Below are positions 5,394 to 16,702 of a DNA stretch of 23,374 nucleotides, in pieces (the first letter of the stretch is position 1; each line of letters starts with the position of its first letter). The DNA comes from Promethearchaeota archaeon (GTDB lineage: Archaea > Asgardarchaeota > Lokiarchaeia > Sigyniarchaeales > SOKP01). Position numbers and translations under genes: made by a program. The stretch is from assembly GCA_048938445.1 (NCBI GenBank), contig JBHLME010000068.1, forward strand, positions 1 through 23,374, given 5' to 3'. The notes beneath the pieces are model-generated. The model ran no database searches, was not told the origin of the DNA, and saw only the letters and a list, made by a program, of their open reading frames with translations.

Positions 5394-5885
5394 TTGTGGA
5401 CGGAATTAAAGATTTTGAACGATAATCAAAATAAAGAAGATAATAAATCCTCTAAACCTATAAAAATAGATTATAAAGATGGTTTAAATGTAAAATATAA
5501 TAAAGAAGATTTAATGAAATATTATCCACACTTAATGGCGGAAATTGAAAATAAAGATAATGAAATGAATATTGACCCAATATCTGCTGATATCACACAA
5601 AATGAAAATTTTGAGCCAATTAAAGAAGAAAAACAACAAATACCAAAGGAATTGATAAATCCTGGTGCAATTGATTTTATTAGGAGATGTAGGAATGAAG
5701 AAGAAACCTTTGAGATCCTTGATTATTTATTAAAAAGAAATGAAATCACCCAGGAACAATATGACGATTTTAAAATAAGAATAAATCAAGAAGATGGATT
5801 AAAAGCGCTAATAGAAGAATGTGGTGGCTTTAAAAAACCGGGTTATTATGAAAAAAAATATTATAAAAAAAATATTAATGGTTAA
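5394..5885 (+). CDS. DUF2095-family protein
   Basis: YPHLMAEI, P.AIDFIRRC.NEEE..EILDYLLKRNEIT and K.PGYY motifs typical of archaeal DUF2095; start uncertain. Confidence 0.75.
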   Translation: MWTELKILNDNQNKEDNKSSKPIKIDYKDGLNVKYNKEDLMKYYPHLMAEIENKDNEMNIDPISADITQNENFEPIKEEKQQIPKELINPGAIDFIRRCRNEEETFEILDYLLKRNEITQEQYDDFKIRINQEDGLKALIEECGGFKKPGYYEKKYYKKNING

Positions 5886-6170
5886 TAATTAAAAACAATT
5901 AACTATTTAATAAGTTAAAAATCTAAGACATTTAAAAACATACTATTTGGTAAGTTTGATTTTTCTTGAATAGATAGAATTAAAGTTTTATCTTCTATCA
6001 TATCTATATCTTGCTTAAAGAATTCTAAATGCAGACATATAATTTTAATAAAAACTGAGTTCTAAAAAATCTTTTTTTTAAAAAAATTTTAATTGGACTA
6101 ATATTATTAGGAAATCCATAATTAAACTCTGTCCCAATTTTTATATATATCTTGAAGGATTATTATATAT

Positions 6171-6698
6171 ATGGAAAAATTAATCGAAGTATTAAATAAA
6201 TTAGGATTACTGGAAACTTCCGACGAAAGTAAACTTATTAATATGAAAGAATTTAAGAATCGATTATTCTATCAAAAATTAATCTTTTTATTTAATGAAA
6301 AAACAAATGAATTAAAATATTCTTTTAATTGGTATAAAAGAGGACCTTACTCTCCTGATTTAACGAAAGATTTGTATTCTATTGATGAACTACTAAAACA
6401 AAAAAAAAAATTTATAGATTTGGTAATTAAAGAAAATATTGATAATAATACGATGGACAAAGCTATTGAGTATATTCAACAGTTAAAATCTTCATTTAAA
6501 GAAAAATTTAATAGAGAATGGACTTCTATAGATTTAGAAATTTTAGCTTCATTAGAATATATTAATAAATACACCTATTCAAATTGTAGAGATTCGAAAG
6601 ATAATACAATCAAAGAATTTAAGGAAAGAAAACCTAAATTGAATAATGAACCAATTAGTGATTATTGGGATCTACTAGAATCATTAGATACTATCTAA
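6171..6698 (+). CDS. YwgA-like / Panacea (DUF4065, SocA)-like protein
   Basis: RLFYQKLIFL, YSFNWYKRGPYSPDL and LEILASLEYI motifs, shared with YwgA/DUF4065 and the DarG C-terminal domain. Confidence 0.75.
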   Translation: MEKLIEVLNKLGLLETSDESKLINMKEFKNRLFYQKLIFLFNEKTNELKYSFNWYKRGPYSPDLTKDLYSIDELLKQKKKFIDLVIKENIDNNTMDKAIEYIQQLKSSFKEKFNREWTSIDLEILASLEYINKYTYSNCRDSKDNTIKEFKERKPKLNNEPISDYWDLLESLDTI

Positions 6699-6732
6699 TT
6701 CTAATTTTTTATAATTAAGAGAGGCAATAATT

Positions 6733-8271
6733 ATGGATCTACCATATGTTAAGGAGATTTTTGATCCAATATATAGTTTTATAAAACTTACTAAAGAAGA
6801 GATTAATGTTATAGATAATTTAATCTTTCAAAGATTGCATAACATCAATCAATTAGGAACATTACATTTGGTATTTCCAACGGCTAGAAATACTAGATTT
6901 TCTCATTCATTAGGAGTTTTGGCAGTAACACAAAAAATTATTGATAATCTTAAATTTTTACCAAGATCTGGAACGAAAGATATAAAAAAATTCAATCTAG
7001 AGCCTAATGAACAAAGGTTAATTAGAGCTGCAGCGCTTATGCATGATATTGGACACCTTCCATTTTCACATTGCACTGAAAATGTAATTAAAGAATATAT
7101 ATTAAAAAAATATTCACATCTAAAAATACAAGGAAAATTTCATGAATGGTTAGGAGGTGAAATAATTAAAAAAACTAATATATATAATCCAATTGAAATT
7201 TATAAAAGAGATATTATTATAACAGACCATCGGGAAAATATTAGTCAAATTATCAATGGTAGTTCAAAATTTACTTTATTTAATCAAATTCTTAATTCTG
7301 AACTTGATGCAGATAGAATAGATTATCTTGGTCGTGATTCTTATTCAACGGGAGTCTCATTTGGTTTAATAGATATGGATCAAATTCTAAGAAAAATGTT
7401 TGTAGAACAGAGGAGAGCAACTGGAACTAAAGGATCTGATAATATTATTGTATATTCAACACATGTAATAAATGCAATAGATAATTATTATTTTGCACGA
7501 ATGTTTATGTATAATTCAGTTTATTTTCATAAAGTTTCACGATATTTTGATTTTTTATTAAAAAAATCATATGAAATAATTATTAATTCTGATAATTTAA
7601 ATGAGATTAAATCTAATTTACTTTTAAAACCAGATATCTTCTTAGAACCAATACTAGAGGATAAGGAATTGGATGAAAAAGAAATTCAGGAATTTTATGT
7701 TTTATGGCATCAATTCGATGACCATTATGTATGGAATTGTATGCGTGATTGTTGGCATCAATTAAAGAAAAAAGATAATAATGATTTAAGTGAAGAACTT
7801 GTCCTCCTAAAAAATTATTTTGATTTATTATTTCAAAGAAAGAAATCTGAACTTGTTTGGGAAGAAAATAGGCTAAAAAACATTATTAGTAATAATAATA
7901 GTGATACAAAATTAGATAATCTCTTGGAGCGTATATTCTCTCAGCTAGAAGATTGGATAAAAAATGAATTACAAAAGGATTATGAATTTCCTCTAATTTC
8001 TTTAAATCATAAAGTCGATGCGCCATTAAGCAATATTGAAATTGATGATCCTGAAAATTTAGATGATTATGAAGGGGAATCCATTCTATTCCACGATCCT
8101 ATGACAGATAAATTTCACTATTTATACAATGTTCAAAGTTCTATAAACTTTCAAATAAATAAATCAGAATTTAAAATTTTTCGAGTTTATTCTACTAAAG
8201 AAGGGTATAGAAATGAATTACATGAGAAAATTGACAAAAAATTTAAAGAATTGACTGATTTTTATATATAA
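6733..8271 (+). CDS. HD-domain phosphohydrolase, SAMHD1/YwfO (COG1078)-like putative dNTP triphosphohydrolase
   Basis: IFDPIY, FQRLHNINQLG, RFSHSLG, LMHDIGHLPFSH, HE, DADRIDYLGRD, MYNSVYFHK motifs; GAGG RBS at ~6721. Confidence 0.92.
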   Translation: MDLPYVKEIFDPIYSFIKLTKEEINVIDNLIFQRLHNINQLGTLHLVFPTARNTRFSHSLGVLAVTQKIIDNLKFLPRSGTKDIKKFNLEPNEQRLIRAAALMHDIGHLPFSHCTENVIKEYILKKYSHLKIQGKFHEWLGGEIIKKTNIYNPIEIYKRDIIITDHRENISQIINGSSKFTLFNQILNSELDADRIDYLGRDSYSTGVSFGLIDMDQILRKMFVEQRRATGTKGSDNIIVYSTHVINAIDNYYFARMFMYNSVYFHKVSRYFDFLLKKSYEIIINSDNLNEIKSNLLLKPDIFLEPILEDKELDEKEIQEFYVLWHQFDDHYVWNCMRDCWHQLKKKDNNDLSEELVLLKNYFDLLFQRKKSELVWEENRLKNIISNNNSDTKLDNLLERIFSQLEDWIKNELQKDYEFPLISLNHKVDAPLSNIEIDDPENLDDYEGESILFHDPMTDKFHYLYNVQSSINFQINKSEFKIFRVYSTKEGYRNELHEKIDKKFKELTDFYI

Positions 8272-8586
8272 TTTTTTTTTTTATATAATATCAAACAATA
8301 ATATCATAAATAATATTCAATTTTTCTAACTCTTTACTGAGTATAATTTAAGAGAATCCTTTTTAAAAAAATAACATCAAAAACATTATTATTAACAATT
8401 TAGTAAGACTCTTTATTTATTATCAAAAAATTGATTTTACTTAGGATCCCATTCCTTTAAATGAAGATAAAATTGCCATGAAAACCTATCAAATATATCC
8501 ATTTCATCCATTTCATATAAAAACAGAATTGAAATTATCCTTTATTTTTAGGTTTACTTTAAGAACTTTTTATTTTATAAATTTAT

Positions 8587-8805
8587 ATGGTCAATAAAAA
8601 AGGTATGATATTTGTATTATATATTGGAATTTTAATTGGATTTATTGGAATATTTATAATATTTTCTGATAATATTTTATTGATCCTTGAAAGTTTTCAT
8701 AATTTTACTAATTCTTTGGAAGTTTTAATTATAATAATAATTCGTATTATTATCTTATCTTTAATATCCTACGTAATGTTTTATAAAATGTTAAAACCAG
8801 AATAA
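8587..8805 (+). CDS. Small two-TM membrane protein, possibly a truncated fragment of a larger membrane protein
   Basis: 72 aa with two strongly hydrophobic segments; stops soon after TM2. Confidence 0.5.
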   Translation: MVNKKGMIFVLYIGILIGFIGIFIIFSDNILLILESFHNFTNSLEVLIIIIIRIIILSLISYVMFYKMLKPE

Positions 8806-8934
8806 TGCAAATGCGAAAATAGTTATGGGGATTCACAAGATAAGAAAACGTTCAATAGAGCAAAAATTTAAAATAAAAAACCTAAACACTAATATTTTAT
8901 TGATGATGTATATATCATTAAGACTAATAATTAT

Positions 8935-9036
8935 AATCTGAATTTGGTAGAAATATGATGAGCTCAATGACAAGACGAGTTAATTGCTCTTAACTATGAT
9001 AATGTTGCCCCAGACTGATTTCTTCAAATTCAGATT
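8935..9036 (+). ncRNA. Box C/D 2'-O-methylation guide sRNA; D guide predicted to target the 23S rRNA P-loop G (E. coli G2251)
   Basis: C box ATGATGA 8955-8961; D' ACGA 8975-8978; internal stem GTTAA/TTAAC; C' ATGATAA 8996-9002; D guide TGTTGCCCCAGA 9003-9014; D box CTGA 9015-9018; terminal inverted repeat AATCTGAATTTG(GT)AGAAA / TTTCT(T)CAAATTCAGATT. Confidence 0.85.
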
Positions 9037-9074
9037 TATAGTATTACAGATAATTCATATTTAATGTGTTCTAC

Positions 9075-10436
9075 TCAAATATAATCGTGATGGTTGTATT
9101 GAGGAATATCAAATAATTTAATACCCGTCATTTTTTCAAATTTTTTAATAATATAATTTTGGATTTTTACAGGATTTTTCATTTTGGGATCAACACTATA
9201 AGGAAATATAATTAAAAAGATATTATGCTCATTACATAAACTTCTCTTTAAATTATCTCTTCTTTTTTGATCTAAAAATTCACAATGTTTTTTATGATAT
9301 TGGTTAGGAAATTCATAGTGTTGTTTACCATTATACTCCAAAGCTAACTTGATCCATTTTTTGTTAATTTTAAACTTAGCAAAACCATCAAAATGCATCA
9401 TCCCTTTATAATCATTAATAATATTTCTAATCATTGTTGTTGGAAATTTTTTTTTAAAAATTTTTTCAAAATAAAATTTACAAATTCGCTGATATTTTCC
9501 CTGGGAACATTCTGGGCACCAACTTTTCAGTTGAATGCTTGAGGCTTGAGTTAACCAGGGATTATGCTCTTCTTTACCACACCACCATTTTAATTTACAT
9601 TTACTAGGAGAATTGAATTGAATTAATTTTTCAAATTCATCTTGAGTAGTTAAAAGCTTTCCAGGAATATTATTTTTTTCTTGACCTCTTATTCTTGCTA
9701 ATTTTACATAGTCATCGTAAGTATGTGGGGCATTTCCCGCACAACTAGGACACCAACCCCCCTGTTGTATACTTCTTTCGGTCGTGTTCCAAGGATCATG
9801 TTCTTCCTTGCTACACCACCATAATAATTTAATATCGCTAGGTTTTCGCTTTGCTGAGAGGATTTTAAATTCTTCTTTAGTTGTTATTAGCTTTCCAGGA
9901 ATCCCTGTTTTTTCTAATCCTCTTATTCTTGCTAATTCTACAAGTTCTTTATATTGAAGTGGATATTTTCCTGCACAATATGGGCACCAATGTCCTTCTT
10001 TTATATTTTTTGCTGTCGATGGCCAAGGTTTATGGTCTTTCTTACCACACCACCATAAAAATTTAATAATGCTAGGCTTTTGATTTGAAGATCTATTATT
10101 AAATTCCTTTTGGGTGGAATTGAGCATCCCAAATATTCCAACCTTATCAATACCAACTTTTTTTGCTAATTCAACCAAATCTTTATATAATAATTTTCCT
10201 GCACAATATTTACACCAGAATTCTTGCTGTATATTTGTTGGCCTAGCAAACCACGGATCATGATCTTCTTTACCACACCACCATAAAAGTTTAGTTAAAC
10301 TAATAGGATGGTCCTTACTAAGTCTTTCAAATTCTTCTTGAGTTGTTAAAAGTTTTCCTGGAATTCCTGATTTTTTTAATCCAACCTTTATAGCTAAATC
10401 TTGAATTATTTTAAATGATAATTTTTGCCTTACCAT
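9075..10436 (-). CDS. Protein with four Zn-ribbon repeats and a C-terminal Vsr/DUF559-like PD-(D/E)xK endonuclease domain (start reassigned to ATG 10436)
   Basis: Four WWC-x4-H-xPW...WCxxC units; HFDGF...LALEYNGKQHY...QKRRD.LK..LC nuclease motif. ATG 10436 removes the overlap with the upstream ORF. Confidence 0.8.
   Translation of the reverse strand: MVRQKLSFKIIQDLAIKVGLKKSGIPGKLLTTQEEFERLSKDHPISLTKLLWWCGKEDHDPWFARPTNIQQEFWCKYCAGKLLYKDLVELAKKVGIDKVGIFGMLNSTQKEFNNRSSNQKPSIIKFLWWCGKKDHKPWPSTAKNIKEGHWCPYCAGKYPLQYKELVELARIRGLEKTGIPGKLITTKEEFKILSAKRKPSDIKLLWWCSKEEHDPWNTTERSIQQGGWCPSCAGNAPHTYDDYVKLARIRGQEKNNIPGKLLTTQDEFEKLIQFNSPSKCKLKWWCGKEEHNPWLTQASSIQLKSWCPECSQGKYQRICKFYFEKIFKKKFPTTMIRNIINDYKGMMHFDGFAKFKINKKWIKLALEYNGKQHYEFPNQYHKKHCEFLDQKRRDNLKRSLCNEHNIFLIIFPYSVDPKMKNPVKIQNYIIKKFEKMTGIKLFDIPQYNHHDYI
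9500..10420 (-). repeat. Four intragenic tandem repeats of 228-234 nt (76-78 aa)
   Basis: WW codons at 10278-10283, 10050-10055, 9816-9821, 9582-9587; identical 19-mer CCTCTTATTCTTGCTAATT at 9685-9703 and 9919-9937; boundaries approximate. Confidence 0.9.
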
Positions 10437-10449
10437 ATTTCTTAATCTT

Positions 10450-10749
10450 TTATATTGGTACTTCTTTTCCTGATCTAGTTTGAAGAAATTTGTTTCCTTT
10501 TGAATCAAAATAAATGAAATTCGCTTTTATAGCAACATCTTTATTACTAGTAAAAAACTCCGCATAGTCATCTCCTATTCCGCTCTCAGGATCCAGCTTA
10601 ATTCCTAACTTTTTCCAATTACGCATTTTTTCTGCTAAAAATTGATAAGTTTTAATGAAATCGTCGATATTTGTAGCATCTGATGTTATCCACTTATTTC
10701 TTATCGTACAAATATATATTTCTTTTTCAATCCCGTTTTTTTTGACCAT
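10450..10749 (-). CDS. Small hypothetical protein (~99 aa; start reassigned to ATG 10749)
   Basis: AAGGGGAATAAA-ATG RBS context; RNKWITSDA..IDD and GIGDDYA look like conserved motifs; ends 13 nt before the nuclease ATG. Confidence 0.7.
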   Translation of the reverse strand: MVKKNGIEKEIYICTIRNKWITSDATNIDDFIKTYQFLAEKMRNWKKLGIKLDPESGIGDDYAEFFTSNKDVAIKANFIYFDSKGNKFLQTRSGKEVPI

Positions 10750-11035
10750 TTTATTCCCCTTTTTTTTATAAATATTATTGATTATTTTCAATTTCACTAC
10801 TTTTTTTCTATATATCTTTTTAAATATCGTTAAATTTATATTGGCATTTGTATATAAAGGAAAAAAGGATTTTTATGAAATATGCTACTTATGATTCTTT
10901 CCTTGCATTAAAATATTGGTATTGATAAAAATTAATTAAGAAAATATTACATAATGAATAAAAGATGAATTAAAATTGCTTATAGAGATCTTCTCACATT
11001 TTAAATTTAATTAAAGAATTTGGAGTAGTAGATCT

Positions 11036-12310
11036 TTAATTTGATTTAATAAAATTTGATAGAATGTTAAATTCGTTTTTTTTTATATATTTAGACCAAC
11101 TTTTATAATCTTTTAGTTTCCAGTTTTTTGCTTCTTGAAGTGGAGGGATTTTACATGGAATTGGTTCCATCCTACAATATAAACAATCTCCTTTACATTT
11201 TACGGGTTTAAACTCATTATTCGTACTTTTCCGGGTATATATAGGTATATTTATTCCCTCACAGTTATCAGAAGTCATAAATTGATGGTCATTATTCAAG
11301 CTTTCATAATAAAATAAACCATTTTTCTGTATAATCTCAAATTCCATGCATGTCGACATTGTAACCCCTATTTCTTGACAATAATTTTTAATTTGCTTCA
11401 ATATTTTTTTTCTATAAGAAATATTAGCATGTAAGTCTGATGTTATTTTTTCATTATATAATTTAAAATATTTATTTTCAATCTCATTTCCCTTAATATT
11501 AATTAAATTAGTTAAAATTTTATCTTTAATAAAGATAGGAATATCTAAAATGCTTGTTCCTATATGGTTTGCACCTGCTTCTACAGCAGCATTAATCACT
11601 TCTTTGATGTCATTGAAATTATCATTAACATATGGAATTATTGGATCAATTCTACATACAACATGAATATTAGAATTAGCTAGCCGTTCTATGTTCTTTA
11701 ATAATTGATTAGTGCTAGCTCCTTTTCCAAAGATCAATTCTTTCTTTAATTCGTCATCTAAAGTTAGAATAGAGACTTGTCCAAAACTATGGTGATATTT
11801 ATGCTCAGCCATAAGTTTAATGGCCTCATTAGATATAACTCCTTTTGTTATTACTTCAATGGGTAAATTGAATTTTAGGAATACTTTCATTATTTTTTCT
11901 GTTAAATGATATTCATTATTAACGGGTTGAAATGGGTCAGTAGTAGGTGAAATATATCCACATGATGCACATAAAAGACTATTTATTTGTTGATCGATAA
12001 GTTTATCAAAATCTTTAAAAACAGTGATTATTCCTTCCTTTCTAAATAATTCAAAATAACCCCATAGAGCATGCGCATAACAAAAGGAACAATCCCAACT
12101 ACATCCATTATAAGGATTAATCAAGAACCTTTCAGAAATACACGCTCTATTACCTTGATCGTTTGCAGAGTTCCACCATCCATGAATTTTCTTTTTAGAA
12201 TTTATTAAAATATGAGGTACTGGTTTTTCAATAACTTCGGGAAACTTGTATTTACCCCCAATTTTTAACTCTATAACTTTTTTTTTTGAAACGGGATTCA
12301 AATTTCCCAC
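11036..12310 (-). CDS. Radical SAM protein, spore photoproduct lyase-like (COG1533) family
   Basis: INPYNGCSWDCSFCYA (CX3CX2C), TDPFQP, ITKG, RIDPIIPYVND motifs; GTG start after GAAAG. Confidence 0.88.
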   Translation of the reverse strand: MGNLNPVSKKKVIELKIGGKYKFPEVIEKPVPHILINSKKKIHGWWNSANDQGNRACISERFLINPYNGCSWDCSFCYAHALWGYFELFRKEGIITVFKDFDKLIDQQINSLLCASCGYISPTTDPFQPVNNEYHLTEKIMKVFLKFNLPIEVITKGVISNEAIKLMAEHKYHHSFGQVSILTLDDELKKELIFGKGASTNQLLKNIERLANSNIHVVCRIDPIIPYVNDNFNDIKEVINAAVEAGANHIGTSILDIPIFIKDKILTNLINIKGNEIENKYFKLYNEKITSDLHANISYRKKILKQIKNYCQEIGVTMSTCMEFEIIQKNGLFYYESLNNDHQFMTSDNCEGINIPIYTRKSTNNEFKPVKCKGDCLYCRMEPIPCKIPPLQEAKNWKLKDYKSWSKYIKKNEFNILSNFIKSN

Positions 12311-12740
12311 CTTTCTTTAATTAGTTTTTATTATTATTTGTTTCTATGTAAGGCTTCTTATTGAGAAATTAATAATGTAAGGCAGTTATGATTTTGTGAT
12401 TTGTGGTTAAATCCCCGAAAATTTTAGCATAAATATATGGAATTACTCCTAAAAAATATTTATTTTTGAATTCTCCTATGCAATAACTTGATTTTGCCTT
12501 TAAACACTTTATGTATTTAATATGGCTTTATTCTTCAATTTTTCCTATTAGTGAATAGTTCTCTTTTCAATTTATATTGTTCTGAATATTTAAGCACGAC
12601 GTTATGTTGGGGTAATTTAAAGATATAATAGAACCACAAATTTAAAGGTAATTTAGAAGATTATCTAAAATGGAAGATTAAAGGATAAAAGGAAGGGAAA
12701 AATTTCATTATATTTTCTTTTTATAGTTCGTTTTGATGTT

Positions 12741-13295
12741 TTAACGATTAAGGTGCCTATTTAATTCAAGATATAATAATTCAATAGCAGTATTTAGGAA
12801 GATTTGGGCATATATACTTGTATTAAATACTTCTTGCCAATTAACTTGACCAGAATTAATATCTACTAGTTTCTGATATTGTTTTGGTTGTAAATTGGCA
12901 CTTAAATTAGAGATATATTGATTATACTCATTTAAATAGTGTGAGAGTTGCATTAAGATTTCTTCATTAACTTCAATACGAGTTATATAAATTGGAATTA
13001 TTTTTCTATTTCTTTTGAATGTTCCTTTAATTATATTACCATTATCATAGATCATTTCTAAGATATAATCTTGATTTTTAAGTTCAAACATTTTCTCATT
13101 TATATCAGATTGATCCATCACATTATTTAGTCGATTTAATAAATCAATTATTAAATCTGTTTGTTCTCTACTGAATTGCATATTTAAACTCATAAAAAGT
13201 ACAATGTATGATATGAATTTATAACCAAAGAGTCGAGAAAAATTGTGAATTTTGAAAATATTAATAGTATATTCCCTTTTTTCTGTCTTATTCAT
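12741..13295 (-). CDS. Hypothetical protein (start may be ATG 13193)
   Basis: Open frame downstream of, and overlapping by 8 nt, the methyltransferase; N/Q-rich and helical; no recognised motif. Confidence 0.6.
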   Translation of the reverse strand: MNKTEKREYTINIFKIHNFSRLFGYKFISYIVLFMSLNMQFSREQTDLIIDLLNRLNNVMDQSDINEKMFELKNQDYILEMIYDNGNIIKGTFKRNRKIIPIYITRIEVNEEILMQLSHYLNEYNQYISNLSANLQPKQYQKLVDINSGQVNWQEVFNTSIYAQIFLNTAIELLYLELNRHLNR

Positions 13296-14664
13296 TTAGA
13301 AAATAGGGGATTTTCTCAAAACTACTTGGTTCTATAGGGGGGTCATTTCCTCCGTACTTAAATCCAAGTTCAGCGTAATTTTTTATTATGGGAGGATCTA
13401 CTCTAGTATTTTTTTTTACAAAAGGCCCATCAAATTTTGCATTTCTAATAATAACTATATCACCTTCTTCAAAATTAAAATCTGTACCGCTATAATTAGC
13501 AATTTTAAATTTACAACCTCCATTACAGAAATAGTAATCAGTATAACTCCGGTTTGTAAAAAGTCCATAAATATCTATATTCTCTCTTCCATTTCTATCT
13601 AAAATTTTCTGTCTCTTATATCTATTCATATAAGTTAATGAAATATTTCTCTGATATAAGTCAATTGTGTTCTGAATAAGATTACTGTAATTTCTTGAAT
13701 TGATATCTTGGGAACTTAATACCAAATAACAGAAACTATTTCTTTCTTCAGGATTTATTTGAAAAGTACATAAATCACCGCAAGGATTAAAAAATGGAAA
13801 GTCTCTCTTTTGTGGTGTTCCATAATTTCTGTTTGCGTTTAGACAAGGCGCATTTCTTATAAGATTTACTTCGGATTTAAAATCAATTTCAAGATATTTA
13901 TATAAATGAGGGGATGGTGCTTCTAATAGGATAATGATTCCATTTTCCTTTAAATATGTAGAAATTAGATTAAATAAATTAATCAGTTTATCTTTATCGG
14001 GATTATTTTCATTTATAATAAAAGATAAGATTATAACATTATATTTTTCATCCCCTAAAATTGTTTTTAAACTCCCCTTCAGATCTTTAAAATTGATAAA
14101 ACGTGGCTCCAAGGTTTCTTTTAAATTAATCCTTTTACTTAAGGCTGGATTTATGGTTTGGATAATATTAAAGAGCTCCTTGATGAATTTAAGAAAATTC
14201 TCTTCTCTTTCAATCAAATTAACCTCATAATTAAAGTTGAATATCCCAAATTGGTTAATATTTTCAAAGTATTCAATAAAAGCATTAAACATCGTCCCTG
14301 GACCCGTTCCTATATCTAAAATTCTAATAGTTTCATTATTCCAACTTTTTAAAATTTCATAGAAATTTGTATATTTTAATAAATGGTTTAGAATAAAATG
14401 CATCCGAGGGAAATATATCTCTAAATAACTATTAATATAAGCAATATATTGCTTTTGATCAGAGTATAATGGCTTTATAGGGACTCCTTTTTTTAATAAG
14501 TCAAAATCTTTACTTAATTTTGATTTCCCATCTTCTATATCTTTATCTGATAAACCTGAAGAATTTGTTTCTTTTAATATCGTATATCTTATATAATCAG
14601 GGAGTTTTACATCCTTAGGGGGACGCAAATTCTCTAATATCTCTTGTTTCATATATCTATCCAA
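13288..14664 (-). CDS. Class I SAM-dependent methyltransferase, Rsm22/METTL17-like, with Cys cluster and probable C-terminal OB fold
   Basis: AYINSYLEIYFPR, ILDIGTGPGT motif I, ILSFIINE, GIIILLEAP, APC...PCGDLCTF...FCYLVL. Confidence 0.72.
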   Translation of the reverse strand: MDRYMKQEILENLRPPKDVKLPDYIRYTILKETNSSGLSDKDIEDGKSKLSKDFDLLKKGVPIKPLYSDQKQYIAYINSYLEIYFPRMHFILNHLLKYTNFYEILKSWNNETIRILDIGTGPGTMFNAFIEYFENINQFGIFNFNYEVNLIEREENFLKFIKELFNIIQTINPALSKRINLKETLEPRFINFKDLKGSLKTILGDEKYNVIILSFIINENNPDKDKLINLFNLISTYLKENGIIILLEAPSPHLYKYLEIDFKSEVNLIRNAPCLNANRNYGTPQKRDFPFFNPCGDLCTFQINPEERNSFCYLVLSSQDINSRNYSNLIQNTIDLYQRNISLTYMNRYKRQKILDRNGRENIDIYGLFTNRSYTDYYFCNGGCKFKIANYSGTDFNFEEGDIVIIRNAKFDGPFVKKNTRVDPPIIKNYAELGFKYGGNDPPIEPSSFEKIPYFLNE

Positions 14665-14920
14665 TTTAAATCAACTCTAATTTAATTAATCTTATTATTT
14701 CTCTAAAAAAACTTATAGTATGCCAAACCTTGGATGATTTGATTTTTATTGATGATTTAATTCGTATTTTTAATGTTTTTGGGAGTATGATATATAATCT
14801 ATTCTACTTTAAAAGAAAAGAGTTAAATATATAAATTTAATGTTAGAGTTTTAATAGCGATAAGTGTTTCAAAACACCTAAATTAAATTTTTAAATAAAA
14901 TATAATTTTATTCAACAAAA

Positions 14921-14944
14921 GTGAATTTTAATGATAAAATTCAC
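14921..14944. promoter_or_regulatory. Perfect 10-bp inverted repeat (operator or terminator hairpin)
   Basis: GTGAATTTTA-ATGA-TAAAATTCAC between the wHTH gene end and the methyltransferase start. Confidence 0.4.
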
Positions 14945-15012
14945 CTTTCTATATAGGTTCTTTAAAAATCTTCATTTTATTAAAAAACTGTAATCCCAAT
15001 CTGAAATATAAA

Positions 15013-15285
15013 TTAACTTTTTTTATTATTATCGAGATGTTCTCTTAAATATTTTTTAAAATTTTTCCCTTTTTCTGCGATATAGTACTCTTGATTATTT
15101 TTTTCTATTAAGTTTAAGTCAAGTAAAACAGGAATTCTACCCCTAATACAAGCAATCGGAAGTCCGGAAAATAATTTTATAGTTTCAATATCTTTTGCTC
15201 CCCTATCAATAGCTAATAAGATGTCTATTCCCATGTTTCCTAATAAGTAATTTAAATCTTCTAAAGAATCTTTTTTACTTGACAT
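15013..15285 (-). CDS. Small winged-helix DNA-binding protein
   Basis: ILLAI..G, helix-turn-helix, then LLDLNLIEK...YYIAEKGK wing signature. Confidence 0.75.
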   Translation of the reverse strand: MSSKKDSLEDLNYLLGNMGIDILLAIDRGAKDIETIKLFSGLPIACIRGRIPVLLDLNLIEKNNQEYYIAEKGKNFKKYLREHLDNNKKS

Positions 15286-15340
15286 TTTTTTATTTTTTTT
15301 AAAATTGTTTTAAAACTTTAAAGATCTTATAAAAATTGAG

Positions 15341-16702
15341 TCATTTCTTTTTTTTCTCTTTTGTATTATCCTCTAGATCTTCAAAACCATTCTTTATAGG
15401 TTTATTCTCTTTTAATTGTTGTTTTTTAGGACTAGAAGATAATTCCTCTAAAAAAGATTGAACTCTAGTTTCCTTGGGTGTTTGTACTACTTTCTCCCCT
15501 AAACCCTTAAAAATTTCAGCCATTTCTTCTCTTAGTTGTTGTCTTTCTATTTTTTCTAATTCTTCAATGCTTGGAGTATATTTATCTGCAATAACTGGTG
15601 CCGCTTCCTTGCCTTTTAATAATTTTCTTAAATATTCCGGAAAATCTGTCATTATCTGAAAATTTGTTTTTAAAACAATACAGGTTTCACCATTTAATTG
15701 TATCTCATCAATAAAATTATACCTTTCTAAATATTCAATTGTTCTTATAAGAGAATTTAGATTTCTTTTAGGAACAATTTCACCTAATTTACTTTTAGGA
15801 ATCCATCCATTTCTTAATTTTGATAAGATATTATATTTTTTTGGATCAGAAATAACTTGAAAGATGAGATATGAATCATCAATTAGATCTTTTTTATTCT
15901 TTTTTTCATGTTCATTAAAAAAATCTAATATTCTTGGTAATAAAAATTCATTTAACTTGTTCTCATCATCCCAATTTTCAATTACACTTACGGGAGGAAT
16001 TCTTTCAGCACTCACTTCTCTTAATAAGAGAATATACGTAGTCCAACCTATTTTATTTTTAAAAATAAACTGCTTATCAACTAAAATATCAATCATATCA
16101 TCAAAATTTTTATGAACAAAAGAATTATGGAACCATTCTGATAATCCTTCCAATGTACTTGGCCCTTCTGAAAGTTTTTGTAAAGTTAAGAAAATGTGAT
16201 TCTCACTTAATAATGAAGCAATAACCTCCTCTTCGCTCTTTTCACGTGTATCTTCTTGAACGGTTCTGTATAAGTCTTTTATTAAAACTTTCATGAGTTT
16301 ATCATTTTGTATGATCTCCTTACTATGTTCTTCGTAATTATTGAGATCATTGATATAATATGCAGCATAAATCTCTTCATTTGCTTGTAACATGCTAGCA
16401 AAATCGGCTAACAAATTACTCACTTTCTGTTCAACCTCAAGGCTAGTTTGTTGGTCAAATATAACTGATGCCATTAACATTTCTTTATTTCCACGTGCCC
16501 AATCTGAAGGAATTTCAAAATAATAATTCATTGAATAAAGATTTTCGAAAGAATGGGTAAAAAAACCTTCATTGAAAGTTTGATCCATTATATTTGCAAT
16601 TCTCACGGATAAAACATCATCCAAAACGGATTCTGGATATGCATATGCGTTAATTGGCCCAATTTTTCTATGAAAATATGATAATGATACAATTAATTTC
16701 AA
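15341..16702 (-). CDS. uDENN/longin-domain (FLCN/SMCR8/NPR2-like) protein with probable C-terminal winged-helix modules and a charged tail
   Basis: N-terminal SYFHRKIGP and NYYFEIPSDWARG..EML.ASVI resemble the folliculin uDENN F...GP and D..ARG motifs; LVDKQFI and LERYNFI are wHTH-like segments. Confidence 0.65.
   Translation of the reverse strand: MKLIVSLSYFHRKIGPINAYAYPESVLDDVLSVRIANIMDQTFNEGFFTHSFENLYSMNYYFEIPSDWARGNKEMLMASVIFDQQTSLEVEQKVSNLLADFASMLQANEEIYAAYYINDLNNYEEHSKEIIQNDKLMKVLIKDLYRTVQEDTREKSEEEVIASLLSENHIFLTLQKLSEGPSTLEGLSEWFHNSFVHKNFDDMIDILVDKQFIFKNKIGWTTYILLLREVSAERIPPVSVIENWDDENKLNEFLLPRILDFFNEHEKKNKKDLIDDSYLIFQVISDPKKYNILSKLRNGWIPKSKLGEIVPKRNLNSLIRTIEYLERYNFIDEIQLNGETCIVLKTNFQIMTDFPEYLRKLLKGKEAAPVIADKYTPSIEELEKIERQQLREEMAEIFKGLGEKVVQTPKETRVQSFLEELSSSPKKQQLKENKPIKNGFEDLEDNTKEKKKK

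Follow-up and report, generated by a model that had tools for sequence, protein, structure and literature searches.

Positions 8935-9036 on the + strand of the window, meaning the whole stretch of 23,374 nucleotides that was analysed, almost certainly contain a real gene for a box C/D guide RNA. Its D guide very probably directs 2'-O-methylation of the 23S rRNA P-loop nucleotide equivalent to E. coli G2251, as judged from comparison with related genomes, and its D' guide may contact helix 89; taken as a whole, this reading has a probability of roughly 0.8. The core of the box C/D sRNA spans 8948-9025, and an extended stem reaches 8935-9036. The element is a new, unannotated sRNA family of a well-known kind, directed at a site that has already been predicted to be RNA-guided in other archaea.

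The RNA possesses the features that place it among the archaeal C/D sRNAs, namely boxes C and D, a terminal stem forming a k-turn and internal C' and D' boxes. Box C (ATGATGA, 8955-8961) is followed by a 13-nt spacer that constitutes the D' guide (8962-8974), the 3' part of which, TGACAA at 8968-8973, is its conserved core. Box D' (ACGA, 8975-8978) is degenerate with the exception of its GA, and between it and box C' (ATGATAA, 8996-9002) lies an internal hairpin composed of GTTAA (8979-8983), the loop TTGCTC and TTAAC (8990-8994). The D guide proper is the 12-nt stretch TGTTGCCCCAGA at 9003-9014, which is complementary to the 23S P-loop and ends at box D (CTGA, 9015-9018). The boxes, spacers, hairpin and guide had all been pointed out in the sequence-only reading and all are present on the + strand. 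Spacers of archaeal C/D sRNAs usually have about 12 nt; here the C'-D spacer measures 12 nt, and the C-D' spacer of 13 nt compares with 11-17 nt in relatives. An inner terminal stem (8949-8953 with 9019-9023) provides the canonical stem of the C/D k-turn, and an outer terminal stem (8935-8947 with 9024-9036), which is deduced from the fold and has a similar counterpart in the copy of a genome of the same genus (G005), is probably part of the precursor only. The predicted fold of the element has an energy of -24.2 kcal/mol (z = -2.64). A 3-nt TAT bulge and then GA precede both box C and box C', and since each GA is thus preceded by the bulge and a Watson-Crick stem, the C/D and C'/D' motifs are both able to form k-turns. 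Both had been described as canonical; the C'/D' pair, being made of ACGA and AUGAUAA, is canonical in its tandem G.A pairs only.

The element rises above chance by virtue of its conservation and covariation in related genomes. A BLASTN search of 61 related genomes revealed clear homologues in 10 other genomes of the family to which this genome belongs (f1, whose sister families are f2 and f3). The expectation that the boxes would be conserved in relatives is borne out by the alignment of the resulting 11 copies, in which boxes C and D (11 of 11), the ATGA of box C' (A62, T63, G64 and A65 of the alignment) and the GA of box D' (G43 and A44) are invariant. The D' guide likewise has an invariant TGACAA, and the D guide an invariant CCC/A. 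The flanking sequences vary from copy to copy yet remain complementary. For the 10 proposed pairs, six in the terminal stem and four in the hairpin, 93.6% of cells in the 11 sequences are paired, compared with only 35-63% when the partner is moved by one to three columns; eight of the 10 pairs have changes on both sides, and the covariation score was reached by none of 500 shuffles. The same structure is found in 55 copies (53 distinct), where an alignment of the 53 sequences fitted to the covariance model has 93.3% of cells paired against 27-44% when slid. All six terminal-stem pairs change on both sides, with 90.9% of cells paired among 11 sequences and 90.6% among 53, and the four pairs of the internal hairpin are paired in 97.5-97.7% of cells, with compensatory exchanges of GC for AU and UA for CG. 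The TGCTC letters of the hairpin loop (window 8984-8989) are nearly invariant in f1 although the stem around them covaries.

A covariance model built from the 11 homologues (R1) gives one match, and no more than one, in each of 115 of the 135 family genomes, representing all 13 of its genera, with E values from 6e-20 to 2e-6. In a sample of the class, matches are found in 107 of 126 genomes of f1, in eight of 13 of f2 and in the single genome of f3, those of the two sister families (nine of 14 genomes) being weaker, and families f4-f7 have no match (0 of 10). The copy in this window scores 80.9 bits, which is the middle of the family range, and it is the sole copy in a genome that is 96.5% complete. 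Four of the five other genomes of the genus yield no match to the sRNA. True loss was considered for these four and rejected: the first is interrupted at this place by a gap of 100 N, the contig of the second stops within the neighbour gene, and the other two yield no neighbour gene either.

The assembly of this genome (256 contigs) has no match to 23S rRNA, and only the last bases of the 16S rRNA are assembled, at a contig end; pairing of the guide was therefore tested on the 23S rRNA of relatives. Behind the 3' end of the 16S in this genome (G000) lies an intron-like tRNA region, without a 23S, and a relative that looks complete (G012) carries its 16S (176242-177736) and 23S (248908-252060) unlinked, about 71 kb apart on contig C27. 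Numbering was fixed on E. coli K-12 rrlH (2904 nt), in which the P-loop CTGGGGCGG starts at C2248 and the four G are 2250-2253. The P-loop of the family is GGCTGGGGCGGCT in all four f1 sequences, and positions 2-11 of the D guide of this genome pair with it over 10 contiguous pairs including two G-U. The sequence-only reading had proposed a pairing of 11 nt with two G-U wobbles; the wobbles are retained and the length is shortened, as an 11th pair requires A2258, a base confined to f3 and a single doubtful fragment from the same genus. That 23S fragment (L011, G005:C72:1-3000) was rejected as a target reference, being only 68-70% identical to the family 23S when family members share 80-84% identity among themselves, and represents either contamination or a highly divergent rRNA gene that bears an intron. 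It follows an ORF with a LAGLIDADG-like motif.

Counted upstream from box D, the fifth base is C9010, which faces the equivalent of E. coli G2251 in the relatives' 23S rRNA. The earlier assignment of this N+5 position to the second G of the P-loop is upheld on relatives' 23S in 52 of 55 copies, 51 of which have 8-10 contiguous pairs; the copy in G031 has its N+5 on G2251 with only five. An extra A before box D shifts N+5 to G2250 in two copies of genus g9 (L014 in G013 and L021 in G035), and the partly masked copy in G117 has a degenerate guide. Where guide and 23S come from the same genome, the P-loop is paired in eight of eight cases. In the commonest form of the guide, TGTCG stands in place of the TGTTG of this genome; the target is the same, and a G-U becomes a G-C pair. 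In f2 the stem of helix 80 carries G2248 and C2256 instead of C2248 and G2256, and position 2 of all eight f2 guides is C, as compared with G or A in f1; to go by these sequences, the guide follows P-loop stem base 2248 in the sister family. This co-change of guide and target, together with the homologues and the compensatory stems, lends support to the functional reading that was first made from the window. The nucleotide itself pairs with C75 of P-site tRNA.

An alternative that carries some weight, while being unlikely, is that the RNA is a real and conserved C/D sRNA for which the P-loop is not the working target, so that the D guide would serve another RNA or act as an assembly chaperone without methylation, and Gm2251 would be lacking or be the product of a protein enzyme. 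By itself the guide match is not significant, and a site equivalent to E. coli 2442-2453 pairs with this guide over nine contiguous bases. Furthermore, double-guide C/D sRNAs are proposed as rRNA folding chaperones in the available text of PMC4644070, and haloarchaea are without a methyl at the G2251 position according to PMC2584109, so that the modification is not obligatory in archaea. However, the 2442-2453 site has a mismatch at position 3 and is lost with the commoner TGTCG form, whereas the P-loop is paired in every genome-matched case and the guide tracks the change at 2248. A tRNA target was not found either: among 39 predicted tRNAs there is nothing comparable for either guide, the best runs being eight pairs that do not cover N+5. 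At least 20 of these 39 ARAGORN tRNAs form a tRNA gene array on contig C215 of this genome, at about 6.4-13.7 kb. RlmB, the bacterial methyltransferase for this site, is a protein-only enzyme of the SpoU/TrmH fold, and no RlmB-type enzyme was found in the genome, in which the RlmB model (TIGR00186) reaches 36.9 bits against a cut-off of 160 and the sole SpoU-family protein is of the TrmJ type (175.3 bits against a cut-off of 167.15).

The machinery that methylation of G2251 by the D guide would require is encoded in this genome. The genes for Nop5 and fibrillarin are located side by side on one contig (fibrillarin 262.2 bits, Nop 204.8 bits), and there are two genes of the L7Ae family (77.7 and 48 bits). 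It is proposed that L7Ae would bind both the C/D k-turn and the C'/D' k-turn, the latter closed by the internal hairpin, upon which Nop5 and fibrillarin would assemble on the RNA. The 12-nt D guide would then base-pair with nascent 23S rRNA at the P-loop (E. coli 2248-2257), and the 2'-OH of G2251, opposite the fifth base of the guide, would be methylated by fibrillarin.

The D' guide, for which the sequence-only reading gave no target, is less readily assigned. Through its core TGACAA it can pair with TTGTCA/G, located at E. coli 2457-2462 in the 5' strand of helix 89, which adjoins the peptidyl-transferase ring, and in six of eight genome-matched pairs N+5 falls on U2460 with 6-8 contiguous pairs. 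The target in f3 is GTCGTCG (C2458, G2462) and the guide CGACGAC, so that two compensating changes preserve the same register with seven Watson-Crick pairs. The position of box D' is ambiguous in several genera, and in genus g4 the D' pairing is 12/12 only if the box is read four bases before the GA that adjoins the hairpin. On this complementarity helix 89 is the likely D' partner for the family, a reading that is favoured with modest confidence, and function of the D' guide in this genome is doubtful, its pairing with the family 23S at helix 89, a variable stem, being limited to six contiguous pairs. A second D' site, in a variable hairpin at about 1606-1662 of the relatives' 23S, was rejected, as the f3 match lies two bases off the f1/f2 register and the site is also missing in G009. 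G2251 (helix 80) and U2460 (helix 89) are 209 nt apart and both belong to the peptidyl-transferase centre; pairing of the core UGACAA with 2457-2462 may either methylate U2460 or only hold this part of the centre during folding.

The genomic setting of the sRNA in this window differs from that in relatives. In 43 of 64 related loci (among L046-L075 and L120-L133, for example L052, 964-1479), some genomes being counted twice, a DUF2095 gene precedes the sRNA on the same strand, the sRNA begins -38 to +162 nt, mostly 10-40, behind its stop codon, and a convergent gene without a recognised family comes after the sRNA; the stop codon sometimes touches box C. This arrangement suggests that in relatives the sRNA is most likely released from the DUF2095 transcript at its 3' end, and the tight linkage hints that DUF2095, to which no function is assigned, may be connected with ribosome biogenesis. 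In one genus and in f3 the sRNA has the opposite orientation between these two neighbour genes, and the f2 loci are without both. Within the genus, G005 keeps the tight DUF2095-sRNA arrangement. Here, the DUF2095 gene (5394-5885, + strand; Pfam PF09868, E = 4e-12) is located about 3 kb upstream and the counterpart of the convergent neighbour (15341-16702, - strand; no Pfam family) about 6 kb downstream, and the intervening genes (5886-8934 and 9037-15340) are absent from this position in relatives. This flanking block encodes an HD-domain protein (6733-8271), a DUF4379 treble-clef zinc-finger protein (9075-10508), a radical SAM protein (11036-12310), a methyltransferase-like protein (13288-14664) and several ORFs without a family, and it may represent an inserted island. 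The immediate neighbours in the window are not beside the sRNA in 63 related loci, so that synteny, which the sequence-only reading had suggested looking for, exists only at the larger scale of DUF2095 and the convergent gene.

Another alternative is that the copy in this window is a relic, moved off the DUF2095 transcript by insertions and now unexpressed or decaying. The gap of about 3 kb to DUF2095, to be compared with the -38 to +162 nt of related loci, and the limitation of D' pairing to six bases would be in keeping with this, as would the promoter analyses, since a scan for bacterial-type promoters and terminators identified no promoter and inspection by eye of the 70 nt upstream in 21 copies revealed no fixed promoter element. 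Decay is nonetheless very improbable for an RNA whose four boxes, two stems and D guide are intact, whose score is mid-range for the family and which is the only copy in a nearly complete genome; moreover, the upstream gap holds three other ORFs on the + strand, so that read-through transcription is possible. In this genome, insertions have separated the sRNA from DUF2095.

Two shuffling controls define how far the short motifs can be relied upon. Of 100 shuffled versions of the window, 72 contain the pattern TGATGA-N45-70-CTGA one or more times, and 161 of 1000 shuffled guides give a run of at least 10 pairs against the 16S and 23S rRNA of a relative (4.6 kb) when runs may include up to two G-U and must cover position 5, so neither the boxes alone nor the guide/rRNA match alone goes beyond chance. 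The claim that the element was unannotated agrees with Rfam, of which no family matches at gathering thresholds anywhere in the window. At E <= 10, 10 of the 13 matches listed fall on the span and strand of the element, and all 10 are C/D-box families, sR35 and an out-of-register snR67 among them; their scores are 13.5-20.4 bits, for thresholds of 35-60. The idea that short AT-rich box motifs came together by chance between genes, which the frequency of the pattern in shuffles and the missing Rfam family would allow, is already refuted by the sequences of relatives, with single-copy homologues in 115 of 135 family genomes, invariant boxes and guides and compensatory changes in two stems, and retains practically no probability.

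The likeness of the RNA to eukaryotic snoRNAs lies in its target. Human SNORD31 is presumably a guide for the same P-loop site, and yeast snR67 shares with the RNA described here that it is a box C/D guide for the same universally conserved nucleotide. As had been stated in the sequence-only reading, snR67 acts at this site, guiding 25S Gm2619 (equivalent to E. coli Gm2251), and it also guides Um2724, according to PMC11121408. This second target corresponds to about E. coli 2355 (our arithmetic, from the offset of about 369 between Gm2619 and Gm2251), whereas the D' guide of the Asgard RNA fits U2460 of helix 89. In E. coli, likewise in line with the sequence-only reading, Gm2251 is made by RlmB (PMC11542601); the predicted product is the same and RlmB is a bacterial stand-alone 23S methyltransferase.

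Closer relatives in kind are found among archaea. Dennis et al. 2015 describe 489 C/D sRNAs in seven archaea analysed by RNA-seq, and modification of the G2251 equivalent is predicted in the available text to be RNA-guided in three of the seven (PMC4644070). These RNAs, compared here by description and not by sRNA sequence, are of the same class, use the same machinery (L7Ae, Nop5 and fibrillarin), have two guides and are directed at the same target nucleotide; going by that text, the archaea concerned are not Asgard. The chaperone dual-guide sRNAs proposed in the same source bind with their guides to rRNA sites that are distant in sequence and close in structure, which would also hold for the Asgard RNA, whose D and D' guides are predicted to address helix 80 and helix 89, a pair of sites absent from Table 3 of dual guides in PMC4644070. 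H. marismortui Gm1950 was rejected as a precedent for guidance at G2251: Table 1 of PMC11542601 equates it with Gm2251 and assigns it to an sRNA, but PMC2584109 places it in helix 69, at E. coli 1909. A search for a catalogue of Asgard C/D sRNAs found none in the literature collection covered, and a review of archaeal C/D sRNAs (PMC7994747) mentions neither Asgard nor Lokiarchaea.

P-loop guides of another form exist elsewhere in the phylum. A strict pattern search of 400 of its genomes, for which a reversed control pattern gave one match, found the family in its own order and, in other Asgard families, compact C/D sRNAs of 56-59 nt that have a perfect P-loop guide, N+5 on G2251 and unrelated D' guides (L104, G239:C605:310-365; L105, G240:C289:3683-3738; and G314:C8:49574-49632). 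The pattern occurs in both genomes of f17 and in three genomes of f31, among which only G314 has a perfect P-loop guide; a match in f28 was rejected as it does not resemble a P-loop guide. In single-C-box matches, the stretch from TGATGA to CTGA spans 54-57 nt in the compact f2 form and 61-73 nt in the f1 form, which is thus enlarged; f1 has long terminal stems, D' spacers that vary from 12 to 17 nt and a hairpin of 4-5 bp separating D' from C'.

The weight that the sequence-only reading had given to this RNA for the ancestry of eukaryotic snoRNAs is overstated. The site is already predicted to be guided in the three archaea mentioned above (PMC4644070, available text), and neither eukaryotic model is matched, the snR67 model (RF01177) giving at 8992-9061 an out-of-register match of 15.6 bits, for a threshold of 55, and the SNORD31 model being absent among the Rfam matches at E <= 10 in the window. 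Since an invariant target forces likeness upon its guides, descent and convergence with snR67/SNORD31 are inseparable, and shared descent is possible on these sequences. A more far-reaching proposal, which is distinctly unlikely, is that a single lineage of P-loop guides leads from Asgard archaea to snR67/SNORD31 with the f1 form as an intermediate, and that DUF2095 is a ribosome-biogenesis factor. If this were true, the traits of f1 marking the intermediate would be the C'/D' k-turn with its conserved hairpin, the relaxed spacers, the long terminal stem and the processing from an mRNA 3' end.

With this RNA, genomes whose C/D sRNAs stay unannotated gain a well-supported non-coding gene, and the co-variation of guide and target provides a clean example of how a target can be assigned without transcript data. 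As it is single-copy and conserved across the order, it offers a concrete target for RiboMeth-seq or cryo-EM of the ribosomes of cultured relatives. Because other archaea are already predicted to guide G2251, this RNA alone does not settle the ancestry of snoRNAs; what it indicates is that the universally conserved methylation of the P-loop in Loki-type Asgard archaea is probably RNA-guided, as in eukaryotes, rather than carried out by a protein of the bacterial RlmB type.
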